Notes: generated by a model from the sequence alone, not told the origin. Numbered from the stretch's first letter, positions 1 through 8,126 are shown. The stretch is DNA of 8,126 nt from a virus (IMGVR_UViG_2609460125_000011), one strand, 5' to 3'. Made by a program: numbers and translations.

Positions 1-234
1 GGTGGAAAGCTTCTGGGGAACGCTGAAAAATGAGAGCCTGAGCCACTATCGTTTTAATAACCGGGATGTAAGCCATCTCAGTAATACGGGAATACATTGA
101 GATTTTCTACAATCGTCAGCGTTGTCACTCTCGTCTGGGGAATATCTCCCCGGCAGCCTTCAGGGAAAAATATCATCAGATGGCTGCTTAAAAAAAGAAC
201 AAATGGTAGTGTCCGCTATTGCCAGTACACCTCA
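1..234 (+). mobile_element. 3' end of an IS3-family (IS600-like) insertion sequence, partial; continues left of the window and ends with terminal ...CACCTCA at 234
   Basis: Bases 1-234 are about 98% identical to the reverse complement of 6903-7136. They encode the conserved IS3-family OrfB C-terminus (ESFWGTLKNESLSHYRFNNRD...RRHSRLGNISPAAFREKYHQMAA) followed by a terminal inverted repeat ending in CA. Confidence 0.8.
2..190 (+). pseudogene. IS3-family transposase OrfB C-terminal fragment, frameshifted
   Basis: Translation gives VESFWGTLKNESLSHYRFNNRD, then loses frame at an extra T near position 69 (gatgTaagcc versus gatgaagcc in the other copy). The frame is regained only conceptually, ending ...FREKYHQMAA with stop at 188-190. 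Confidence 0.7.
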
Positions 235-395
235 TTCAGATATGTCAGCAGCCCAAACAGCAGACTCCCCAGCACGCCTATTGCCGCCCACTGAGACGGG
301 GAAACCCTGTCCAGCAACTGCAGGAACCAGTAGCCCGTTCCCACCGCTGACGTGGTGTATGACACACCTGTTGTGATTTTTTCCATCTGGTCCAT
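216..395 (-). pseudogene. S21-type (class II, pinholin-like) holin, 3'-truncated by IS insertion
   Basis: Translation from ATG at 395 is [54 protein letters not shown], with the dual-start Met1/Met4 motif and two hydrophobic segments typical of S21 holins. A GGAG Shine-Dalgarno sits 7 nt upstream. The frame enters the IS terminal repeat at 234/235 and stops at 216 after IS-derived codons (EVYWQ); the charged C-terminal tail is missing. Confidence 0.75.
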
Positions 396-425
396 ACCCC
401 GTCTCCCGTTATCCGGAAGCTGACA

Positions 426-460
426 ACAATAAAAAAGCCACCAGTTAACTACTGATGGCT
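426..460 (-). terminator. Rho-independent terminator immediately upstream of the holin
   Basis: Minus strand reads AGCCAUCAG-uaguuaa-CUGGUGGCU (9-bp stem, one G-U pair) followed by UUUUUUAUUG. Confidence 0.5.
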
Positions 461-702
461 CTGATAACTCATGCAAGCGTCTCAGACGACCCACTGACAC
501 TACCGGTGAGTTTAACGATACCTTCCATTTGACTGGCTCACTTTTTATGATGATGCCGGTGCATTTATCTCCAGCACCAGACTTTCTATCTCAACGCCAT
601 ACGTTGCATTTTTGGTAATATCCGTCAGCGTCAGTGCATTTAGTCCCACTGCCAGACTGTCTTTTATGGCCTGGAATGCCGGGCCAGTACGATGACGTAG
701 TA

Positions 703-906
703 TCACTCCGGCTCAGTTGCACCACTGACCACCACATCACCTTCTGCTGCAATCGCCTGCATCAGGGTATAAGGGGTTATGGCCACCGGACTACCAAACG
801 GCTGCCAGCCCTCTTTCAGTTTATGTGTCAGCTTTTCCGCAAGATCTGACGGCGGCGCCGCCCTGACAACATCATAGTGTTTAAATGCCATGGTTCTTTC
901 CAACAT
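703..906 (-). CDS. Small conserved prophage protein of unknown function (possibly DUF1737-like)
   Basis: 67-codon ORF (MLERTMAFKHYDVVRAAPPSDLAEKLTHKLKEGWQPFGSPVAITPYTLMQAIAAEGDVVVSGATEPE) with normal GC and an SD-like GGAAAG before the internal Met at 891, which may be the true start. Family assignment is from memory only. Confidence 0.5.
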   Translation of the reverse strand: MLERTMAFKHYDVVRAAPPSDLAEKLTHKLKEGWQPFGSPVAITPYTLMQAIAAEGDVVVSGATEPE

Positions 907-1150
907 CTGAAAAATAATTCTTTAAAATACCTGACATGTAATACAGAAAAAACACAAAACCATACCTTAAATAAAAACCTGATTATCAAGCAGATATGCA
1001 TGGATAAACTACAAGACGAGATATAAACCACCCTGCATTTAAATAAACAATAAACAACATCAGAAAAATAATTCTGCTCTATGGTTTAATTCAAAAATAT
1101 CATTTATACTTTTCAGAACATCACCAGCAAGGCATAAACAAGGAAACTAA

Positions 1151-1486
1151 ATGAAGTGGATTGTGATTGATACAGTTATCCAGCCATCATGCGGAATATC
1201 TTTTTCAGTCATATGGAGTAAAATAAAATTAATAATCTGGTATCAATCGGATGCTTTCTTACCTCCTGAAAGTATATTTACACTGACTCACACAGGCATC
1301 ATGCTCAATAACAAAGTGCTACCTGTAACCATTTACAACGTAGTACCATTCAATAAAACATTCTGGAATTTAATCAAAAACAGCCAGGAATGCCCTACAA
1401 ATACAGATAACGTATTGAATGAATGCTTTAATAACCGTTGCACTCTGCAAATATGTCCTTATGGACTAAAACAACAAAGTCCATAA
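1151..1486 (+). CDS. Hypothetical AT-rich cargo protein with a C-terminal four-cysteine cluster
   Basis: 111-codon ORF with AGGAA Shine-Dalgarno 6 nt before ATG, AT-rich upstream region with a TATACT -10-like hexamer, and low GC relative to neighbours. Six of 13 Ile codons are AUA. C-terminus reads [27 protein letters not shown]. No homolog recognised. Confidence 0.5.
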
Positions 1487-1489
1487 GGA
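1456..1489 (+). other. Perfect 12-bp inverted repeat spanning the stop codon of the 1151-1486 ORF; possible terminator or RNA stability element
   Basis: TCCTTATGGACT (1456-1467), 10-nt loop, AGTCCATAAGGA (1478-1489), followed by GTTTACTC. Confidence 0.4.
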
Positions 1490-1521
1490 GTTTACTCACA
1501 TCTGACAAAATCAATATAAAC

Positions 1522-1541
1522 AGCCCCTCCGGAGAGGGGCT
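1522..1541 (-). terminator. Rho-independent terminator for minus-strand transcripts leaving the cargo region
   Basis: AGCCCCTC-tccg-GAGGGGCT hairpin (8-bp GC-rich stem) followed on the minus strand by GUUUAUAUUGAUUUUG. The plus-strand side lacks a U-tract. Confidence 0.5.
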
Positions 1542-1933
1542 GGAGAGTGGCGCTATGTGCCATTCCATGGTGCCGGGTGCCTCCCGGTGAATTCAGTACC
1601 AGCACCTGAATCCGCGATTATCCCATATACCTACTCGCTGATTGCCCCTCCGCACAGGGGGATTCACCATGCCAGTTTCTTTTAACAAACTCCCCGCAAA
1701 CCAGACAACAGTCAACCGCCTGAATTGTGAAGTATTTAAAAATTTCTCCCGCTAACTGATACCCGGCTAACAGTCTGGCGTTTTCTTTTTCAGCAACGGG
1801 AAAGCAACAACCACCACACCCGCCACCAGCACACCGTCAGCCGGCACTGACATTATCCGGCTGCTGCAATGCCATTAACAAAAACAGTAAGCAATCACTT
1901 TTTACCGTAACAGGTGATAATCCAGATATGTAT

Positions 1934-2287
1934 CTACCCCAGATGAGTAATCCGAAGTTCATCCATACCACAGGTCCTGGCTATTCTGTTGTACTCCTGA
2001 ACAAGAGCAAATAATTCTGAATTAGCAACCATGAACTCATCGCAAACCCTCTGTATAGCATCACTATTCAGAATAATAACGTCTCTTCCCGAAAGACGAT
2101 CAGGAGTACAGAACAAAACTGTCAAACGGCTGAAGGCCTTTGCTCGTGCTGCATTGACTATATCAATACGCTGCCTAAGGATGAAACACCCCGACGCCTC
2201 ATCAATATTCACTCTACCCACACCATATGAATGATAAATACTTAATGCTGAAAAAACCATTAGACCGTATAACAAATACTCAATCAA
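1934..2287 (-). CDS. Hypothetical cargo protein directly downstream of the phage tRNA genes
   Basis: 117-codon ORF with hydrophobic N-terminus (MIEYLLYGLMVFSALSIY...). Six of 11 Arg codons are AGA/AGG and 3 of 11 Ile codons are AUA, matching the adjacent tRNAs. Start is TTG, or ATG at codon 10, with no convincing Shine-Dalgarno, so expression is uncertain. Confidence 0.35.
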   Translation of the reverse strand: MIEYLLYGLMVFSALSIYHSYGVGRVNIDEASGCFILRQRIDIVNAARAKAFSRLTVLFCTPDRLSGRDVIILNSDAIQRVCDEFMVANSELFALVQEYNRIARTCGMDELRITHLG

Positions 2288-2397
2288 TACTTAACAGAAC
2301 TTTTATTTTTGACAAATATATAATATTTTCAACAATATCCTGAGCCAGGTATATTTCAGTATAAGGCTCTGCCGGAAGGAATCTGGAAGAATGAATA

Positions 2398-2474
2398 TGG
2401 CGCGCTGTACTGGATTCGAACCAGTGACCGATTGCTTAGAAGGCAATTGCTCTGTCCGGCTGAGCTAACAACGC
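2398..2474 (-). tRNA. tRNA-Arg (anticodon UCU), phage-type
   Basis: 77-nt cloverleaf on the minus strand: acceptor GCGUUGU/ACAGCGC, D-stem GCUC/GAGC, anticodon stem AUUGC/GCAAU with loop CUUCUAA, T-arm ACUGG-UUCGAAU-CCAGU, discriminator G, encoded CCA. Differs from chromosomal argU. Confidence 0.85.
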
Positions 2475-2575
2475 TGAATACCGATAATGGACCGCCATCG
2501 GGGACCCGCCCCCCGCACCAACAACCCTGTTATCGTGTCGTCTGCTCTTCCTGATAAGCTAATGGCGGTTTGTGA

Positions 2576-2651
2576 TGGTGGCCCTTGCTGGATTTGAACC
2601 AGCGACCTGGCGATTATGAGTCGCTCGCTCTCACCACTGAGCTAAAGGGCC
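2576..2651 (-). tRNA. tRNA-Ile2 (anticodon CAU, lysidine type; ileX/ileZ-like)
   Basis: 76-nt cloverleaf: GGCCCUUUAGCUCAGUGGUGAGAGCGAGCGACUCAUAAUCGCCAGGUCGCUGGUUCAAAUCCAGCAAGGGCCACCA. Close to E. coli ileX in arms and anticodon stem-loop, and not like tRNA-Met. Confidence 0.8.
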
Positions 2652-2690
2652 GGGAGCAGAATAATAACGGTCCGTAATTAATTTCGCAAT

Positions 2691-2715
2691 AAAAAAACCC
2701 GCTCAGCGGCGGGTT
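2691..2715 (-). terminator. tR'-like intrinsic terminator of the short late leader RNA
   Basis: Minus strand reads CCCGCCGCUGAGCGGG followed by a 7-U tract, about 50 nt downstream of the late promoter. Confidence 0.65.
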
Positions 2716-2762
2716 GTAGAAACTCTTCTAACGCCAGGCATAAAACGCCCATCATTATGACG

Positions 2763-2790
2763 AATTTACCACAGATTCCGGAAAAATCAA
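2763..2790 (-). promoter_or_regulatory. Putative late promoter (pR'-like) downstream of Q
   Basis: Minus strand TTGATT (-35), 16-nt spacer, TAAATT (-10), immediately after the Q stop codon and upstream of the tR'-like terminator. Confidence 0.5.
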
Positions 2791-2795
2791 CCTTG

Positions 2796-3617
2796 TTACC
2801 TAGTTACCTTTTTTAACTGCCGCTCAGCCCATGCTTCTTCAATATCAAACCGGGTCACCAGCGCATCATAAAATTTCTTAACTGTTTTTTCCCATGACGC
2901 GCGTGTTATCTGGTTTGTCACCTCGCATATAGCATTAAATGCCTCCGTTGATGGTAGTCTTTCATAGCCACGACCACCACAACGCTGGCAGTCTCTGATA
3001 ACAGGCATACCACGTTTTACCGACTCTTCACGATGAATGGCGACACCACGCCCACGGCAATCCTTACAGGCGGTGGAAACCTCACCCTTTCCGCCACACT
3101 CCGGACAGGCAACTTTTACCACCTCCCTGACTTTTTTCCATTCTTCCCAGTAAGACGGATACACACCTTTCGTACACTTTGCCCATACCGGCGGCTTACC
3201 ATCCGGATACTGGATCTTGTTTGTAAAAACTATGCTTTCAATAAATTTTTCCCCATAGCAACAAGGGCACTGCTTTTTACTCGCTGCGCTGCGGGCATAA
3301 TCCTCAAAAGCGTACGAAGCCATAATGCGCATCACTACCGGTTTTATTTCTGCCGGAAGTTTTCTCAACGCCGCCACACGATCGCACCGACTGAGTGCAT
3401 AATCTGCCAGTAATTCTGTTGCCCGCGCCCTGTCATTCATACTGATGCCCATTTTCCCCAGGAACGCAGAAAAACCCATCTCAGCCCGATTCTGTGTCAT
3501 GCCCTGCGCGGCCATCACATCAGTGATACTCAGCGCATCTTTTGACGTTGAGGCCGATGCATCGGTCAGGCCAGGGGATTTTGGGGAGTAGTATTTCGGT
3601 AAATCTTCCAGTTTCAT
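2796..3617 (-). CDS. Late-gene antiterminator Q-like protein with a DnaJ-like cysteine-rich repeat region
   Basis: 273-codon ORF placed where Q sits in lambdoid phages (after the nin/rusA region, before the late promoter, tR', tRNAs and holin). Contains CPCCYGEK, CPECGGKG, CKDCRGRG and CQRCGGRG motifs. Resembles the QuuQ/YdfT family from memory. Confidence 0.7.
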   Translation of the reverse strand: MKLEDLPKYYSPKSPGLTDASASTSKDALSITDVMAAQGMTQNRAEMGFSAFLGKMGISMNDRARATELLADYALSRCDRVAALRKLPAEIKPVVMRIMASYAFEDYARSAASKKQCPCCYGEKFIESIVFTNKIQYPDGKPPVWAKCTKGVYPSYWEEWKKVREVVKVACPECGGKGEVSTACKDCRGRGVAIHREESVKRGMPVIRDCQRCGGRGYERLPSTEAFNAICEVTNQITRASWEKTVKKFYDALVTRFDIEEAWAERQLKKVTR

Positions 3618-3631
3618 TTTTTGACCTGCTC

Positions 3632-3988
3632 TTAATGCATTATGGGGTAAATCTTCACCCCCAGACGTCCACCAGATACTGGCTGACCACGAACGATATT
3701 GATTTCATCAAACTGCTCATCGTCCATTAACACTCCCGCATGCGTCAGCGCATCCAGCGGTGCTTTCAGGATATTGTCCAGGTCGCGACGACGCTTATCC
3801 GGTGGCTCTGCAATCACCTTTATCGCCAGCCTTCCGGACAGGCTTAATTTCAGCCGCTGCTGGCGAACAATAAGCGCCACAGCCCGGCGATAACGCTTTC
3901 CCTCCTCCGAGATAAAATATGTGCTGCCACGGCGTCGCCAGTAAGTGTTCACCGTCGGCGGGTAAGGTAAAACCAAATCTATGAGCAT
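3632..3988 (-). CDS. rusA: RusA-family Holliday junction resolvase
   Basis: 118-codon ORF with GAGGTGA Shine-Dalgarno. Contains the conserved RusA core PDKRRRDLDNILKAPLDALTHAGVLMDDEQ (compare E. coli RusA [30 protein letters not shown]). Confidence 0.85.
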   Translation of the reverse strand: MLIDLVLPYPPTVNTYWRRRGSTYFISEEGKRYRRAVALIVRQQRLKLSLSGRLAIKVIAEPPDKRRRDLDNILKAPLDALTHAGVLMDDEQFDEINIVRGQPVSGGRLGVKIYPIMH

Positions 3989-4000
3989 CAGTCACCTCTT

Positions 4001-5050
4001 TTACCCAAGCACGCCAGTTGCAAAGGCGTGATCAAGAAAACGAAAAATTAAATCAACCTGAGAACCATGCTTTTCTTCGAACGCCAGAGGATCCGCATGA
4101 AGCTCGTTGTGATGCTCCCGACACAGCGGTAGCGTGAAAATATCGTGAGATTTGGTCCCCATTCCGCCCTGACCATGACCAATCAGGTGATGGGGATCGT
4201 CGGCTGGCTTACCACAACACGCACACGGCTGTGTCTTCACCCAGCGTTTGTATTTCTCGTTAACCCAGCGGCGACGTTTAGGTCGTTTCATGAAAGATTC
4301 CGGAGACTCAGGATCAACGGCAATGCTGACCACCGTCTTTTCCTGTTGTGGGTTCTGTTGCTGGTGGGCGTGAGGCAGCGGCGCAAGATTTTTTGTGCGC
4401 TGTTTCAGTATGCTGGTGGCGGTCTGCTCTCCCGGTACGATGTCGCTTTCACGGTACATTGAGCGGATTTTTTCCGCACGCAACCCCAGCGAACGACGTA
4501 ATACCGCTTCCGGTAGCGCGTCCGCCACCTGATTGCGGACCGCCCACCAGGATAATTCAGCTAGAGATAATTCACGCTCCTGCGTACCGCTTATTGCGTG
4601 ACCGATGACGTCAATCATCCATGCTGACAGGTTTTGATGAGCAAGTTGCTCGAGTGATTCGGATGTCTGGTCACGCAGCTGGTTGTCGCAGTGCCAGCAC
4701 AATACCATTGCGCCGGTACCATAACGGTGAATGACGGTTTCGCTGTGATGATAATCGCCGTGTGGCCACTGGCAGGATTTAATATGGCGCAACAGCCAGT
4801 CAGACAATGCGCCAGCACCACCAGCAGCACGAATCACCCGTGCGTTACTGAAAAACGGCAGCAATGTTTTGTCTTCCACTAGCGGCTGGCGAACGGCAGG
4901 AACGACCCCGGACGGCAGATTACGCATGCTTTTCGGTTCCGGCTCCACCAGTACCCGGGTATTGTGGAATACCGGCATGGATTCACGACCGGGCTTAAGG
5001 ACCACCAGCCCGAGTTCCGGAACCAGAACAGGTCGAAGTAATACCCGCAC
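4001..5050 (-). CDS. ydfU: YdfU-like prophage protein (DUF968-type) with a C-terminal HNH-like Cys/His motif
   Basis: 349-codon ORF with GTG start preceded by GGAGG. Its stop lies in the Shine-Dalgarno region of rusA, suggesting coupling. C-terminal CACCGKPADDPHHLIGHG...CREHHNELH. Same length and position as ydfU in the K-12 Qin prophage as I recall it. Confidence 0.7.
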   Translation of the reverse strand: MRVLLRPVLVPELGLVVLKPGRESMPVFHNTRVLVEPEPKSMRNLPSGVVPAVRQPLVEDKTLLPFFSNARVIRAAGGAGALSDWLLRHIKSCQWPHGDYHHSETVIHRYGTGAMVLCWHCDNQLRDQTSESLEQLAHQNLSAWMIDVIGHAISGTQERELSLAELSWWAVRNQVADALPEAVLRRSLGLRAEKIRSMYRESDIVPGEQTATSILKQRTKNLAPLPHAHQQQNPQQEKTVVSIAVDPESPESFMKRPKRRRWVNEKYKRWVKTQPCACCGKPADDPHHLIGHGQGGMGTKSHDIFTLPLCREHHNELHADPLAFEEKHGSQVDLIFRFLDHAFATGVLG

Positions 5051-5129
5051 GTTACCTCCAGATCCGTTGCTGGAATGTGCGGGACGGACGCGGTGGCTGT
5101 TCGGAGTAAGGGAGCCTGACGGAGATTAT

Positions 5130-5330
5130 CTAGTGACGGTAGTCGAGGCTAAGGGCTTTTTTAACCTCGCATCCGCGCCTGCGGTAACACTGAATAAGCC
5201 ATTCGGCCTGTTCTTCAGTGCATGAGGGATGCTGGTACCAGTCTGACTTAAATGCGTGAGAATACCGCTCGTGCGTGTGGGCAAGAACGGTCGAATTATC
5301 ATGATTGTAATATTTTGCGTTGCGTGCCAT
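5130..5330 (-). CDS. Hypothetical small protein
   Basis: 66-codon ORF (MARNAKYYNHDNSTVLAHTHERYSHAFKSDWYQHPSCTEEQAEWLIQCYRRRGCEVKKALSLDYRH) with GGAG Shine-Dalgarno 7 nt upstream of ATG. Confidence 0.5.
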   Translation of the reverse strand: MARNAKYYNHDNSTVLAHTHERYSHAFKSDWYQHPSCTEEQAEWLIQCYRRRGCEVKKALSLDYRH

Positions 5331-5396
5331 CGGTTTTCTCCGGTGGCACGGTGTTACTCAGCGGGAGTTCAGCCCCGCGCAAGATTGTAGATGAGT

Positions 5397-5648
5397 TTAT
5401 TCTTCTGAAAAAGCAGAAAAGCCAGCTTTTATTCCGATCTCTTTCAATGCCTGTAATGAAGTGACAAACTCACCGTCGCGCAAGATAAATCCGTCCGTCA
5501 CTCGGGCATCCACAAAATTAATTAACGCAGCCCCATTTTTTTGCAAACACACAATGCGGTAATGACTAACAATATTTCCATTTTCAACGCACACAGCATA
5601 GAGGCCATCTTCACAAAAAATTTTACGCAGTTCTTCGATGTTCATCAT
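5397..5648 (-). CDS. rem: Rem-like small prophage protein
   Basis: 83-codon ORF with GGAAGGA Shine-Dalgarno, a promoter-like TTGAAG-18-TAGAAT upstream, and a position between ydfU and hokD as in Qin. Assigned by length and synteny, not sequence. Confidence 0.55.
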   Translation of the reverse strand: MMNIEELRKIFCEDGLYAVCVENGNIVSHYRIVCLQKNGAALINFVDARVTDGFILRDGEFVTSLQALKEIGIKAGFSAFSEE

Positions 5649-5765
5649 CAGAATCCTTCCAGATAAGTAGCACTCCCCTGTTCGGGGTCCATCCCTTTTA
5701 TCCCTGCGCGCTACTTAAGTATTTTTGATTCTATTCCGGCACCATCCAGAACTTCAAATGCGTTG

Positions 5766-5798
5766 AAAATAAAAACAAAAACCCGCCGAAGCGGGTTT
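5766..5798 (-). terminator. Rho-independent terminator of the relB-relE-hokD operon
   Basis: Minus strand ACCCGC-uucg-GCGGGU hairpin followed by UUUUGUUUUUAUUUU. Confidence 0.6.
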
Positions 5799-5865
5799 AG
5801 TGCGGGTGCGTTGAGGATGCCTGCCACATCAGAGGTGGCGAGGGATTTCTCACTCGCCGGGTCTC

Positions 5866-6021
5866 TTACTCCTCAGGTTCGTAAGCTGTGAAGACAGCGA
5901 CCTCCGTCTGGCCGGTTCGGATTCGTACCTCGCAGAGGTCTTTCCTCGTTACCAGTGCCGTCACTATGACGGTTAAACAGATGACGATCAGGGCGATTAA
6001 CATCGCCTTTTGCTGCTTCAT
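5866..6021 (-). CDS. hokD: Hok-family type I toxin (HokD/RelF)
   Basis: 51-codon ORF below the ORF-track length cutoff: MKQQKAMLIALIVICLTVIVTALVTRKDLCEVRIRTGQTEVAVFTAYEPEE. Matches E. coli HokD as I recall it and has the Hok-family single transmembrane helix. Confidence 0.85.
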   Translation of the reverse strand: MKQQKAMLIALIVICLTVIVTALVTRKDLCEVRIRTGQTEVAVFTAYEPEE

Positions 6022-6092
6022 AGCCTGCTTCTCCTGTCAACGCAAAGCAGAAGTGTCACCTTCGGTGCGAAACAGAGATGTCATGCTTTGGT

Positions 6093-6380
6093 TCAGAGAA
6101 TGCGTTTGACCGCCTCGCTATATACTTCCGAGCGTTCTCTTTTCCCAACAGAAATCACGAAAACGACAACTTTCTCGTCTATAACCTGGTATACAAGGCG
6201 ATAGCCTGAAGACCGGAGCTTAATCTTGTAACAATCAGGCATACCACGGAGCTTGTTTGCTTCAATCCGGGGTGACTCAAGTACTTCAACCAGCTTCTTT
6301 TTCAACTGTTCACGTACCGTCGAGCCCAGCTTTCGCCATTCCTTTAGTGCCCGCTCGTCAAAATCCAGAAAATACGCCAT
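6093..6380 (-). CDS. relE: RelE mRNA interferase toxin (type II)
   Basis: 95-aa product MAYFLDFDERALKEWRKLGSTV...VISVGKRERSEVYSEAVKRIL is essentially E. coli RelE. Its ATG overlaps the relB stop (ATGA). Confidence 0.95.
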   Translation of the reverse strand: MAYFLDFDERALKEWRKLGSTVREQLKKKLVEVLESPRIEANKLRGMPDCYKIKLRSSGYRLVYQVIDEKVVVFVISVGKRERSEVYSEAVKRIL

Positions 6381-6619
6381 CAGAGTTCATCCAGCGTCAC
6401 ACGTACTGGCTTAGGATTACGAAGCCGTTCTTTCACTATCTCCACAAGTTCAGCATCTTCATCACTCAGGAGTGTCTGTTTGAACGGCAAGCGTTCATTG
6501 TCAGCGATATACTCGAGCATGAGACGAAGCGCTTCAGAAGGAGTTACACCCATTTTTTCAAGCGCGGCGTAAGAACGCGCTTTAAGTTCATCGTCAATAC
6601 GCAGGTTAATGCTACCCAT
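6380..6619 (-). CDS. relB: RelB antitoxin (type II)
   Basis: 79-aa product MGSINLRIDDELKARSYAALEKMGVTPSEALRLMLEYIADNERLPFKQTLLSDEDAELVEIVKERLRNPKPVRVTLDEL is essentially E. coli RelB. Confidence 0.95.
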   Translation of the reverse strand: MGSINLRIDDELKARSYAALEKMGVTPSEALRLMLEYIADNERLPFKQTLLSDEDAELVEIVKERLRNPKPVRVTLDEL

Positions 6620-6700
6620 GTCTTACACCTCTTGTAATTACAAATGTCATTACAAGTATCGCACTACAACATGCTTAGGGCAAGTCACGAAGGAAGTCAG
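6620..6700 (-). promoter_or_regulatory. relBE promoter/operator region
   Basis: Immediately upstream of relB: perfect palindrome TTGTAATTACAA at 6632-6643 and a second TGTCATTACAAG repeat (the hexad repeats bound by RelB/RelE), an AGAGGTG Shine-Dalgarno, and candidate TTGCCC-17-GATACT promoter hexamers. Confidence 0.55.
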
Positions 6701-6946
6701 AAAGTAGTCGTAAGAACGGTGATCACTGTCCGCTTTGTGCCAGGAGCAGCCATTGCTAAGTCCATCCTGTATTGTGCAGGTCAGCTCTTTTTTAAAGAGT
6801 CCGGCCATCATCTTACTGGTACAGACACCATATACTTTGTGACGGTCAGGCTACATATGCACAACTCAACTTATTCATCTATTTTTTGCTTTAGCATGTC
6901 AGTGAGGTGTACTGGCAATAGCGGACACTACCATTTGTTCTTTTTT

Positions 6947-7734
6947 TAAGCAGCCATCTGATGATATTTTTCCCTGAAGGCTGCCGGGGAGATATTCCCC
7001 AGACGAGAGTGACGACGCTGACGATTGTAGAAAATCTCAATGTATTCCCGTATTACTGAGATGGCTTCATCCCGGTTATTAAACGATAGTGGCTCGGGCT
7101 CTCATTTTCAGCGTTCCCCAGAAGCTTTCCATCGGAGCGTTGTCGTAACAGTTACCTTTACGCGACATTGATGTTTCAGACCAGACTGCTCCTGTATGAC
7201 CCGGTAATCGTATGCGCAGTACTGTGAACCTCGATCAGAGTGGTGGATTAGCCCGGCAGGTGGGCGCTGGCTCCTGAGCGCCATAAACAGGGCTTTACCT
7301 GTCAGCTCTTTTGTCATGCGCTCTCCCATGGCGTAGCCGACAATTTCGCACGTATAAACATCTTTGATGCCAGCAACATACGTCAGGTCCGCCACCCAGA
7401 CCTGATTTGGTGCTGTAGGAGCGAACGTCTGGTTCAGCAGATTTGGCGCAACTGGCAGATTGTGGTTCGGGTTCGTAGTCGCTCTGAACTTGCGTTTCTG
7501 CTTACAGCGTAGCCTCAGCTCCTTACGAAGACGTGCCAGTCGGTCACGACCAACGATGATGCCATTCTCTGCCAGCTCCGTCTGGAGCCGCCGGGTTCCA
7601 TATGTTTCGCGAGTGCGGATATGTGCCACCTTAATCTCCGGTTTTAGCCGCTCATCACTTTGTTTTCTGTCTGAGGGTTCATGCTGTACCCAGTTGTAAT
7701 AACCGCTCCTGGATACACCAAATACCTGACACAT
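6947..7734 (-). pseudogene. IS3-family transposase OrfB (DDE catalytic domain), frameshifted and internally deleted
   Basis: MCQVFGVSRSGYYNWV...NQVWVADLTYV-AGIKDVYTCEIVGYAMGERMT...LIHHSDRGSQYCAYDY, then loses frame. The conserved C-terminus MSRKGNCYDNAPMESFWGTLK...FREKYHQMAA is present out of frame with single-base losses in A and T runs. The segment after DLTYV that normally carries the conserved GWLYL motif is absent. Confidence 0.75.
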
Positions 7735-7813
7735 CGCTTCAATGGGAAATTGTTGTCGCCATTGTTCGATTAACGCGTATTTTTCAGCGACTCCTGTGCA
7801 AAATACGCTGTTG

Positions 7814-7820
7814 CTTTTTT
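7814..7820 (-). other. A6G slippery heptamer (programmed -1 frameshift site) of the IS3-family transposase
   Basis: Minus strand AAAAAAG inside ...GATATATTAAAAAAGCAA..., at the orfA/orfB overlap as in IS3-family elements. Confidence 0.5.
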
Positions 7821-7848
7821 AATATATCTCGCTCAAGGCGAGCTTCAT

Positions 7849-8037
7849 TTAACGCCTTACGCAGTTGCAGAATTTCAGATTCCAGTTCAGCCACCGTGCG
7901 GTAACCAGGAGTCCTGAGCTCCCTTCAGGCGGCGGTAACCCATAAGCGCCTTCACTGATCGAAAGTTGATTTTCAAGAACCGTTCTGACAGCTTCGGCTT
8001 TGAACTCTTTAGAGTAACGTTGGGTTTTTCTGCTCAT
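7849..8037 (-). pseudogene. IS3-family transposase OrfA (helix-turn-helix N-terminus), disrupted
   Basis: MSRKTQRYSKEFKAEAVRTVLENQLSISEGA... starts at 8037 with a Shine-Dalgarno upstream. The frame is lost before the conserved TVAELESEILQLRKALNEARLERDILKK segment, which is present only in another frame, implying an internal indel. Confidence 0.75.
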
Positions 8038-8126
8038 TATTAGCTCCTTCTGATGCCATTCTATTTCAGGAAGGAGTGTCCGTTAAACTCAGGCTACCTC
8101 ATTTCCTTCGTTTATTTGCATGAATA

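Follow-up and report, generated by a model that had tools for sequence, protein, structure and literature searches.

In Escherichia coli K-12, the cryptic prophage Qin is linked to ydfJ and has the gene order essQ ... ydfT(Q)-ydfU-rem-hokD-relE-relB-ydfV. For the IS600-associated stx region of Shigella dysenteriae type 1, mobilisation or amplification has been reported. A defective Stx prophage associated with IS600 was described for S. dysenteriae type 1 by McDonough and Butterton (1999), as cited in PMC7819885. Inversions by recombination between inverted IS copies, some of them parallel, are well documented in Shigella (PMC8072062; PMC1550401): they separate S. flexneri 5b 8401 from 2a 301 (PMC1550401), and IS-mediated inversions have been catalogued over 414 E. 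coli and Shigella genomes (PMC8072062). An "inversion probably mediated by IS600" that is mentioned in PMC1550401 may correspond to the flip described below.

The window, i.e., the whole stretch of 8,126 nucleotides that was analysed, holds a phage-derived segment between two IS600 copies. With good confidence it is regarded as a Qin-type prophage remnant in situ, bracketed by IS600, whose 6.7-kb interior has been flipped by recombination between the inverted copies. The locus shares with the described Shigella inversions the same IS in inverted position at both bounds, two orientations among strains, recurrence and a lack of target-site duplications. In contrast to these, it is small, with an interior of 6.7 kb wholly within a prophage remnant, and one of its arms is a 924-bp copy truncated by IS1. 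A DNA segment in two orientations is also known from the Hin, Gin, Cin and Pin switches, e.g., pinQ of Qin, but neither an invertase gene nor short crossover sites were found here, and the deletions have removed the pinQ region. None of the segment genes had a recombinase family among its precomputed Pfam hits. IS600 is the sole long inverted repeat of the segment, a configuration different from a Hin/Pin-type switch; since the arms are IS copies of 0.9-1.26 kb, the flipping would be generic homologous recombination.

IS600 copies and interior genes of the window

The window is identical (100 %) to one whole contig of the draft scaffold KN150715.1 (GCA_000754175.1, Shigella flexneri-type), in which gaps of 100 N, unsized, flank it on either side. 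Its features are listed in Table 1. The right ends of both IS600 copies point inward at 234 and 6903, as had been described before: the IRR of the left copy, ...GTACACCTCA, terminates at 234, and the right copy begins at 6903 with the reverse complement of the IRR, TGAGGTGTAC..., and terminates at 8101 with the reverse complement of the IRL (...GGCTACCTCA). The terminal inverted repeats of IS600, TGAGGTAGCC... (IRL) and TGAGGTGTAC... (IRR), were thus located at three of the ends; the left copy runs out at the contig end, beyond which the scaffold gap follows. Window positions 1-241 pair with 6896-7131 far above chance, the longest arm having 172 nt with 98 % complementarity and three more arms being separated merely by 1-nt indels. 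A canonical 1264-bp copy at the equivalent site of S. flexneri 2003036 has 99.8-99.9 % identity to IS600 of the Shigella pINV plasmids pWR100 and pCP301; for the copies of the window, identity to IS600 is 97-100 % in aligned blocks. Terminal repeats and near-identity both assign the copies to IS600 (IS3 family).

Table 1 Features of the 8,126-nt window
Feature	Position	Strand	Remark
Left IS600 copy, 3' end (C-terminal part of orfB and IRR)	1-234	+	...CACCTCA at 234; 98-99 % vs full IS600 of relatives
Truncated class II holin gene, essQ-like	216-395	-	Pfam Phage_holin_2_1
Hypothetical ORF, 53 aa, late region	545-706	-	
DUF1737 protein ORF, late region	703-906	-	
iraM-like anti-adapter gene (cargo), 111 aa	1151-1486	+	PmrD-family Pfam hit
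STnc100 sRNA match	1512-1701	-	124 bits; gathering score 47
tRNA-Arg(UCU), phage	2398-2474	-	
tRNA with CAU anticodon, phage	2576-2651	-	annotated tRNA-Ile in RefSeq relatives
Late antiterminator gene Q, 273 aa, intact	2796-3617	-	PF03589 Antiterm
rusA	3632-3988	-	
ydfU (DUF968)	4001-5050	-	
rem	5397-5648	-	
hokD	5866-6021	-	
relE	6093-6380	-	
relB	6380-6619	-	
ydfV cut by IS600	6644-6949	+	codons 1-87 from ydfV (6644-6904), final 14 codons from the IS
Right IS600 copy, IRR to IRL	6903-8101	-	1199 bp (canonical 1264)
Tail, 25 bp	8102-8126	.	identical to E. coli nanQ(yhcH)-yhcG intergenic region

The previously described contents of the segment (relB, relE, hokD, rem, ydfU, rusA, Q, two tRNAs and the iraM-like cargo) were confirmed, as was the interruption of the holin gene by the left copy. 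Of the 71 codons of the intact E. coli holin gene, the first 53 are retained (237-395), followed by six IS600 codons and a stop. Likewise, ydfV is interrupted by the right copy, with 87 of 101 aa left, which is absent from the preliminary description.

Position beside ydfJ-ydfI and the order ydfU-rem-hokD-relE-relB-ydfV, with 93 % nucleotide identity over 2.9 kb, are shared with K-12 Qin and assign the remnant to the Qin type. The part from Q to the holin gene, with rusA, the 273-aa Q, both tRNAs and the iraM-like cargo, differs from K-12 Qin and represents a different lambdoid type; it has 98 % identity to prophages in other E. coli. Unlike in Qin, all DNA outside holin'...ydfV' is deleted in the Shigella segment. 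In a search of complete E. coli genomes and phages with the whole window, the bracketed arrangement was absent from all records and the interior alone matched. Matches of 236-6035 to E. coli (98 %, complete-genome search) and of 4001-6904 to phage PhiR42_1 (93 %, phage search) served as intact references only.

The interval from the Q/tRNA region to the holin gene contains a 117-aa ORF, DUF3927, STnc100, the iraM-like gene and DUF1737; stxAB was not present in it. Comparison with Stx phages placed the iraM-like cargo in the slot where these phages have stx, and they match the window in the flanking backbone only. The proposed resemblance to the defective prophage of S. dysenteriae type 1 is generic only: in both cases IS600 has eroded, and is associated with, the late region of a defective lambdoid prophage in a Shigella chromosome, and the cargo slot has the Q/tRNA region on one side and the lysis genes on the other. 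It does not extend to stx, which the S. flexneri segment lacks, nor to the arrangement of the copies, which are inverted here, so that inversion is expected and not amplification or deletion.

Flanks and orientations in Shigella flexneri

The bracketed segment recurs across many S. flexneri assemblies. The ydfV-IS600 chimeric protein was indexed in 573 blocks of the assembly collection, and all long contexts read of it presented one and the same locus. According to published papers, CP004056 (strain 2003036, here L016), CP026792 (61-4982, here L012), CP058589 (M2901) and CP024981 (str. 201) are S. flexneri. The outer flanks in the finished genomes are not prophage, but ydfJ and IS1-ydeQ. The ydfJ junction lies 257 bp inside ydfJ, past the end of K-12 Qin, which points to a deletion into the host gene. 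In these genomes, IS1 has shortened one IS600 copy to 924 bp, without the IRL and orfA. In the assembly L009, both copies are full length and the right one is joined to ydeS; we count this join as support for an older inversion.

None of the copies has a target-site duplication, as had been noted before: the flanks are GGG/CTG or GGG/GTC in the finished genomes and AAA/CTG in the window. Simple IS600 insertions in E. coli, taken as control, had 1264 bp and exact 3-bp duplications in two of three cases (GGC/GGC, GTG/GTG, AAT/TAT); the 3-bp figure rests on these insertions, as it is not stated in PMC9397093. The missing duplication is expected of recombinant copies, and it is no argument against their identity as IS600.

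The inversion was seen directly between the finished genomes of 2003036 and 61-4982. The interior (2668-11183) aligned forward at 99.86 % and both flanks in reverse, with the breakpoints inside IS600; two interior orientations against conserved flanks, with breakpoints in the repeats, characterise inversion by inverted-repeat recombination. Strain 61-4982 is collinear with K-12 at ydfI-ydfJ and ydfU-ydfV, whereas 2003036 is inverted and not collinear. Judged from this synteny, the K-12-collinear arrangement is probably the ancestral one. The K-12-collinear flank has 98.4 % identity in genomes of the Y orientation. Depending on the orientation, the IS1-truncated copy borders either the holin gene or ydfV; truncated and full IS halves are thus exchanged, as expected of a crossover within the IS.

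Flanks, missing duplications and the visible inversion together uphold the preliminary description, which had attributed the junctions to IS-mediated deletion, inversion or recombination. Beyond the copies, ydfJ and IS1-ydeQ were found, but neither the 3' half of the holin gene with the endolysin gene nor any duplications. Two independent simple insertions, one in the holin gene and one in ydfV, without further rearrangement and with the absent duplications due to sequence errors, have next to no probability: the inner junctions are clean IS ends within recognisable genes, as such insertions would leave them, but the outer flanks are ydfJ and IS1-ydeQ (or ydeS) instead of the remaining holin and ydfV halves, and the interior exists in both orientations.

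Five derived sites (window 903, 2691, 5131 and 5196; flank column 764) join clusters of the Y orientation and the X orientation, and the same five leave out L013, a genome of the X orientation. At least two flips therefore occurred on the local SNP tree, which comprises few SNPs from about 11 kb and could be misled by gene conversion or recombination. For the window, with both ends of its contig inside IS600 and unsized gaps around it, the orientation is tentative: the scaffold sets it in X, yet its closest relative L003, with an identical interior, is Y.

The preliminary description had also considered a composite-transposon-like or amplifiable segment, i.e., an IS600 pair that mobilises or amplifies the relBE-hokD-Q-tRNA-cargo unit like stx of S. 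dysenteriae type 1. Cargo genes between two copies of one IS, both full length in L009, agree with such a module, but in the finished S. flexneri genomes the copy cut by IS1 at 924 bp has no IRL and no orfA, and the unit therefore has a single outer end (the left copy of the window, cut by the contig end, is uninformative in this respect). No target duplication surrounds the unit, the outer flanks ydfJ and IS1-ydeQ are unrelated, and the long contexts read showed a single locus and no copies elsewhere. The interior is collinear with Qin at the K-12 site beside ydfJ, thus the unit never moved. Inverted copies give inversion and not tandem amplification or deletion (principle: PMC8072062). With one copy lacking its outer end, the ancestral Qin position and inverted repeats, mobilisation as a composite transposon or amplification as a module is very improbable.

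The right IS600 copy and the contig end

The right copy, formerly described as complete, does run from end to end, but with 1199 instead of 1264 bp and with private deletions and homopolymer indels. Compared to canonical IS600, 34 bp of orfA are missing at 7943/7944 and 27 bp of orfB at about 7374, in addition to a substitution cluster and several 1-nt homopolymer deletions. In canonical IS600, orfA and orfB are joined via a programmed frameshift at an A-run; the right copy has A6 instead of A7 at this site, and its ORFs are fragmented (62 and 208 aa). The relatives have intact IS600 genes of 100 and 272 aa at this site, hence the deviating length and ORFs are a probable sequence artefact. The broken transposase products of 208 and 62 aa occurred in the source assembly and in no other assembly of the collection.

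In 725 E. coli genomes the 25-bp tail occurs as a single-copy sequence, intergenic within the nanQ-yhcG-gltD locus, and in none of these 725 did IS600 adjoin the 25-mer. An exact search of species-representative genomes and JGI metagenome contigs gave no match to the junction of the IRL with the tail. In finished genomes, the neighbours are ydfJ or IS1 and not the tail. The flanks AAA and CTG of the right copy (element orientation) are present in the sequence as had been reported, but the tail belongs to the distant nanQ-yhcG locus, and AAA is therefore probably not the true neighbour. Most likely, the outer end of the contig at the right copy is a repeat-assembly chimera, in which a repeat consensus would have been extended, over the outer ~300 bp of the copy and the tail, into the flank that belongs to a different IS600 copy. 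The earlier argument from AAA versus CTG on a complete copy depends on this contig end, which is most likely unlike the real genome, and is not supported.

A real junction, in which a recombinant IS600 joins ydfV to nanQ-yhcG in this strain and both deletions are genuine, would require one more large inversion or translocation, between IS600 copies at a distance of about 1.7 Mb. Megabase-scale IS-mediated rearrangements are frequent in Shigella, and ydfV, the IS and 25 bp with an exact match to nanQ-yhcG intergenic DNA follow one another without a break in the contig. However, the contig stops just these 25 bp past the repeat, and the neighbour given to this end by the scaffold is a ydfJ contig that breaks off 611 bp into IS600. 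Only the repeat has deletions and homopolymer indels; the unique interior does not differ from that of L003. Together with the variant transposase products found in no other assembly and the absence of the junction from the genome and metagenome collections searched, this makes a genuine junction unlikely.

Proposed history and consequences

A lambdoid Qin-type prophage of S. flexneri would first have resided in ydfJ, like Qin in E. coli K-12, and would have received IS600 in the holin gene and in ydfV, inverted and with the right ends inward. IS-mediated deletions and an older large inversion may then have removed all DNA outside the two copies: at one end, 257 bp of ydfJ would have been lost together with the genes for lysis, tail and packaging; at the other end a ydfV-IS600-ydeS junction would have formed, subsequently shortened by IS1 to IS600'(924 bp)-IS1-ydeQ. 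This order of ancestral insertion, deletion and inversion is a reconstruction. Each bordering IS600 would be recombinant, hence the lack of a 3-bp target duplication at any of them. The two copies share 924 bp of inverted sequence with more than 99.5 % identity, across which host homologous recombination could flip the 6.7-kb interior while the outer IS parts remain with the chromosome. This shared identity and the lack of an invertase gene suggest recombination of the RecA type rather than transposase activity. We infer that the flip is selectively neutral, and see in the locus an ordinary instance of the known IS-driven rearrangement in Shigella, with no new mechanism.

Both chromosomal flanks (ydfJ-ydfI; ydeQ-ydeP-safA-ydeO) are oriented away from the segment, and the segment has outward-pointing genes at its own two ends (holin end, late operon; opposite end, ydfV). 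There is a slight chance that the flip acts as a crude switch of flank transcription and is selected rather than neutral. An inversion would then swap the flank that lies downstream of terminator-resistant, Q-antiterminated late transcription, e.g., the acid-resistance genes ydeP/ydeO versus ydfJ/ydfI, and recurrent flipping among lineages would reflect selection instead of neutral recombination; the functional steps are speculation throughout.

The practical consequences lie in genome comparison. A small, recurrently flipped segment in a prophage remnant of a major pathogen can mislead reference-guided scaffolding, synteny analysis and structural-variant calling, and where a draft contig passes through an IS, a false neighbour and a falsely 'defective' IS copy can result. 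The locus is also an example of how IS600 and IS1 eroded a Qin-type prophage step by step but spared relBE and hokD (toxin-antitoxin modules) as well as Q, the tRNAs and the iraM-like gene.

IS600 junctions and gene content of the segment

Positions 1-241 of the window were the reverse complement of 6896-7131, with a longest arm of 172 nt (98 %) from which the other arms were separated only by single-base indels. The right end of IS600 (...GTACACCTCA) ended at 234 and its reverse complement began at 6903, while the left end of the element was located at 8101. The pairing of the repeats and the IS ends confirmed the inward-facing right ends of the preliminary description. The left copy cut the holin gene, as had been proposed, after residue 53 of 71. 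An interruption of ydfV by the right copy after residue 87 of 101 had been missed. In relatives, the element at the right-copy position had a size of 1264 bp and an identity of 99.8-99.9 % to copies annotated as IS600 on Shigella virulence plasmids. The first base beyond the left IS600 end, position 235, was a T in the window and in assembly GCA_900457225.1 (L003), whereas every other S. flexneri locus, like the intact E. coli holin, had a G; the T alters the chimeric holin tail to N in place of T and marks the window's assembly and L003 as sisters.

The minus-strand genes represented the late-regulatory part of a lambdoid prophage. In the cargo region, the strong STnc100 match was flanked by the iraM-like gene and the DUF3927 ORF. 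The gene stx was absent from the window, and Stx phages matched it only in the backbone; the suggested resemblance to the IS600-associated stx segment of S. dysenteriae 1 was only generic. The tRNA with CAU anticodon was called Met by ARAGORN, but its E. coli prophage orthologue is listed as tRNA-Ile in RefSeq. It probably belongs to the lysidine-modified Ile2 type of phage tRNAs and forms a pair with tRNA-Arg(UCU), an arrangement also found in the late regions of Stx phages. The DUF1737 gene was intact (calls of 62-67 aa); in an otherwise 98 % identical E. coli prophage (L001) it was annotated as a truncated pseudogene (4471-4656). S. flexneri str. 201 (L014, CP024981) had an extra IS1-associated disruption within the segment; 149 aa of ydfU remained, and the part near the holin was replaced or rearranged.

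Features of the window between and at the IS600 copies
Feature	Position	Strand	Remark
relB	6380-6619	-
relE	6093-6380	-
hokD	5866-6021	-
rem	5397-5648	-
ydfU	4001-5050	-	DUF968 gene
rusA	3632-3988	-
Antiterminator Q	2796-3617	-	273 aa
tRNA, CAU anticodon	2576-2651	-	ARAGORN call: Met
tRNA-Arg UCU	2398-2474	-
Cargo region			small: 117-aa ORF, DUF3927, STnc100 match, iraM-like gene, DUF1737
STnc100 sRNA family match	1512-1701	-	Rfam, 124 bits vs gathering score 47
iraM-like gene	1151-1486	+
DUF1737 gene	703-906	-
Class II holin gene	start at 395	-

Two orientations of the segment in Shigella flexneri

Each junction was probed with its own chimeric protein, holin-IS600 or ydfV-IS600. In the assembly collection, 573 blocks had an index entry for the ydfV junction protein; four of the chromosomes with this protein are S. 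flexneri according to the respective papers (2003036, 61-4982, M2901 and str. 201). Between 2003036 (L016, CP004056) and 61-4982 (L012, CP026792), the interior and the shared IS parts aligned forward with 99.86 % identity and both flanks were reversed. Orientation Y, with the holin adjoining ydfJ, was present in L003, L010, L011 and L012, and orientation X in L008, L013, L014, L015, L016 and the window's source scaffold. Orientation Y is collinear with the Qin prophage of E. coli K-12 and thus ancestral. In both orientations the truncated IS half remained with ydeQ and the full half with ydfJ, as predicted for a crossover inside the IS. The earlier suggestion of an IS-mediated deletion, inversion or recombination was right, and the inversion became directly visible between finished genomes.

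The inverted arms had 924 bp in common with an identity above 99.5 %. An invertase gene was not present within the segment; the pinQ region had been lost with the deleted DNA. Classically, an inversion arises by recombination between repeats in inverted orientation. In Shigella such inversions, including parallel events, have been documented many times (PMC8072062), and an inversion that distinguishes strain 8401 from strain 301 was described as 'probably mediated by IS600' (PMC1550401). Long, nearly identical arms, the missing invertase gene and this precedent suggest that the interior was flipped by RecA-type homologous recombination between the IS600 arms. The window is one more case of the well-known genome plasticity of Shigella. 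It is very improbable that Q-dependent read-through reaches different flanking operons as a result of the flip.

Single nucleotide polymorphisms were polarised by E. coli outgroups. Five derived sites (window 903, 2691, 5131 and 5196 as well as flank column 764) grouped the Y cluster and L008/L015/L016, an X cluster, to the exclusion of the X genome L013; L009 (GCA_903995685.1) was even more basal. On this tree, at least two flips have to be assumed. The closest relative of the window was L003, with an identical interior and both the T at 235 and one flank polymorphism in common. L003 had orientation Y and the window's scaffold orientation X, however the placement of the latter lacks sequence support because both contig ends lie in IS600. 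This difference was left out of the flip count, thus a third flip was not assumed.

Outer flanks and older rearrangements

The missing halves of the holin gene and of ydfV did not form the outer flanks in any finished genome. One flank was ydfJ-ydfI, with the junction 257 bp inside ydfJ and past the end of K-12 Qin, the other was IS1 followed by ydeQ-ydeP. In L009 (11524-12258), a member of a different lineage, the ydfV-side IS600 was still full length and joined to ydeS-ydeR. In K-12, ~57 kb separate ydeS from ydfV and their relative orientation is the opposite one, so this junction is an endpoint of an older large inversion. It presents evidence for a ydeS-ydfV inversion of ~57 kb before the IS1 trimming in the main S. 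flexneri group. There, the left end of the ydfV-side copy was later lost to IS1, together with ydeS, ydeR and a portion of ydeQ; the IS600 remaining after trimming has 924 bp.

No bordering copy in the finished genomes had a 3-bp target duplication: the flanks were GGG at the left terminal inverted repeat and GTC (holin) or CTG (ydfV) at the right ones. As control, three simple E. coli IS600 insertions, each of 1264 bp, had an exact 3-bp duplication in two cases (GGC, GTG) and an imperfect one in the third. A composite transposition, as the preliminary description had considered, is not supported, in view of the lost outer end in the finished genomes, the absence of a duplication around the unit and its position at the ancestral prophage site. 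Amplification of the segment is not supported either, since copies in inverted orientation offer no basis for unequal crossing-over. A further IS600 was located just past ydeI (BOF family), at 19176 in L003 and at about 19274 in L008 and L013-L016, ~7.7 kb further out than the ydfJ-side copy and in inverted orientation to it. Several potential partners for recombination are thus clustered in the region.

The right copy and its outer flank

The right copy, taken as complete in the preliminary description, had 1199 bp instead of the canonical 1264 bp. Alignment with canonical copies revealed deletions in orfA (34 bp) and orfB (27 bp), a substitution cluster, a frameshift-site run shortened from A7 to A6, and several single-nucleotide losses in homopolymers. 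The unique interior, unlike this copy, was identical to L003. The broken products of 208 and 62 aa were found in no other assembly of the collection. The 25-bp tail past the IS (8102-8126) differed from the neighbour in finished genomes. It was single-copy nanQ-yhcG intergenic DNA, adjoining gltD, in 725 E. coli genomes, ~1.7 Mb away from the window's locus on the K-12 map. A real right-hand junction, hence a further rearrangement, is unlikely: the junction of IS600 with this tail was found nowhere else among E. coli genomes, species-representative genomes and JGI metagenome contigs. The window was exactly one contig, which matched a section of scaffold KN150715.1 (GCA_000754175.1) with 100 % identity, and was flanked directly by 100-N gaps on both sides (L004, the source scaffold, 2170-2269 and 10396-10495). 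The ydfJ-bearing neighbour contig stopped 611 bp inside IS600, the ydeQ-side one 95 bp inside IS1. In the simplest reading, a poor consensus carried the assembler across the repeat and out into sequence flanking a different copy of IS600. The unequal flanks AAA and CTG, key evidence of the preliminary description, were correctly read from the window, but are probably an artefact of such an assembly. In one match to the tail (L019, 3001-3025), it immediately preceded a gene of 101 aa with the annotation 'transposase', which is not IS600.
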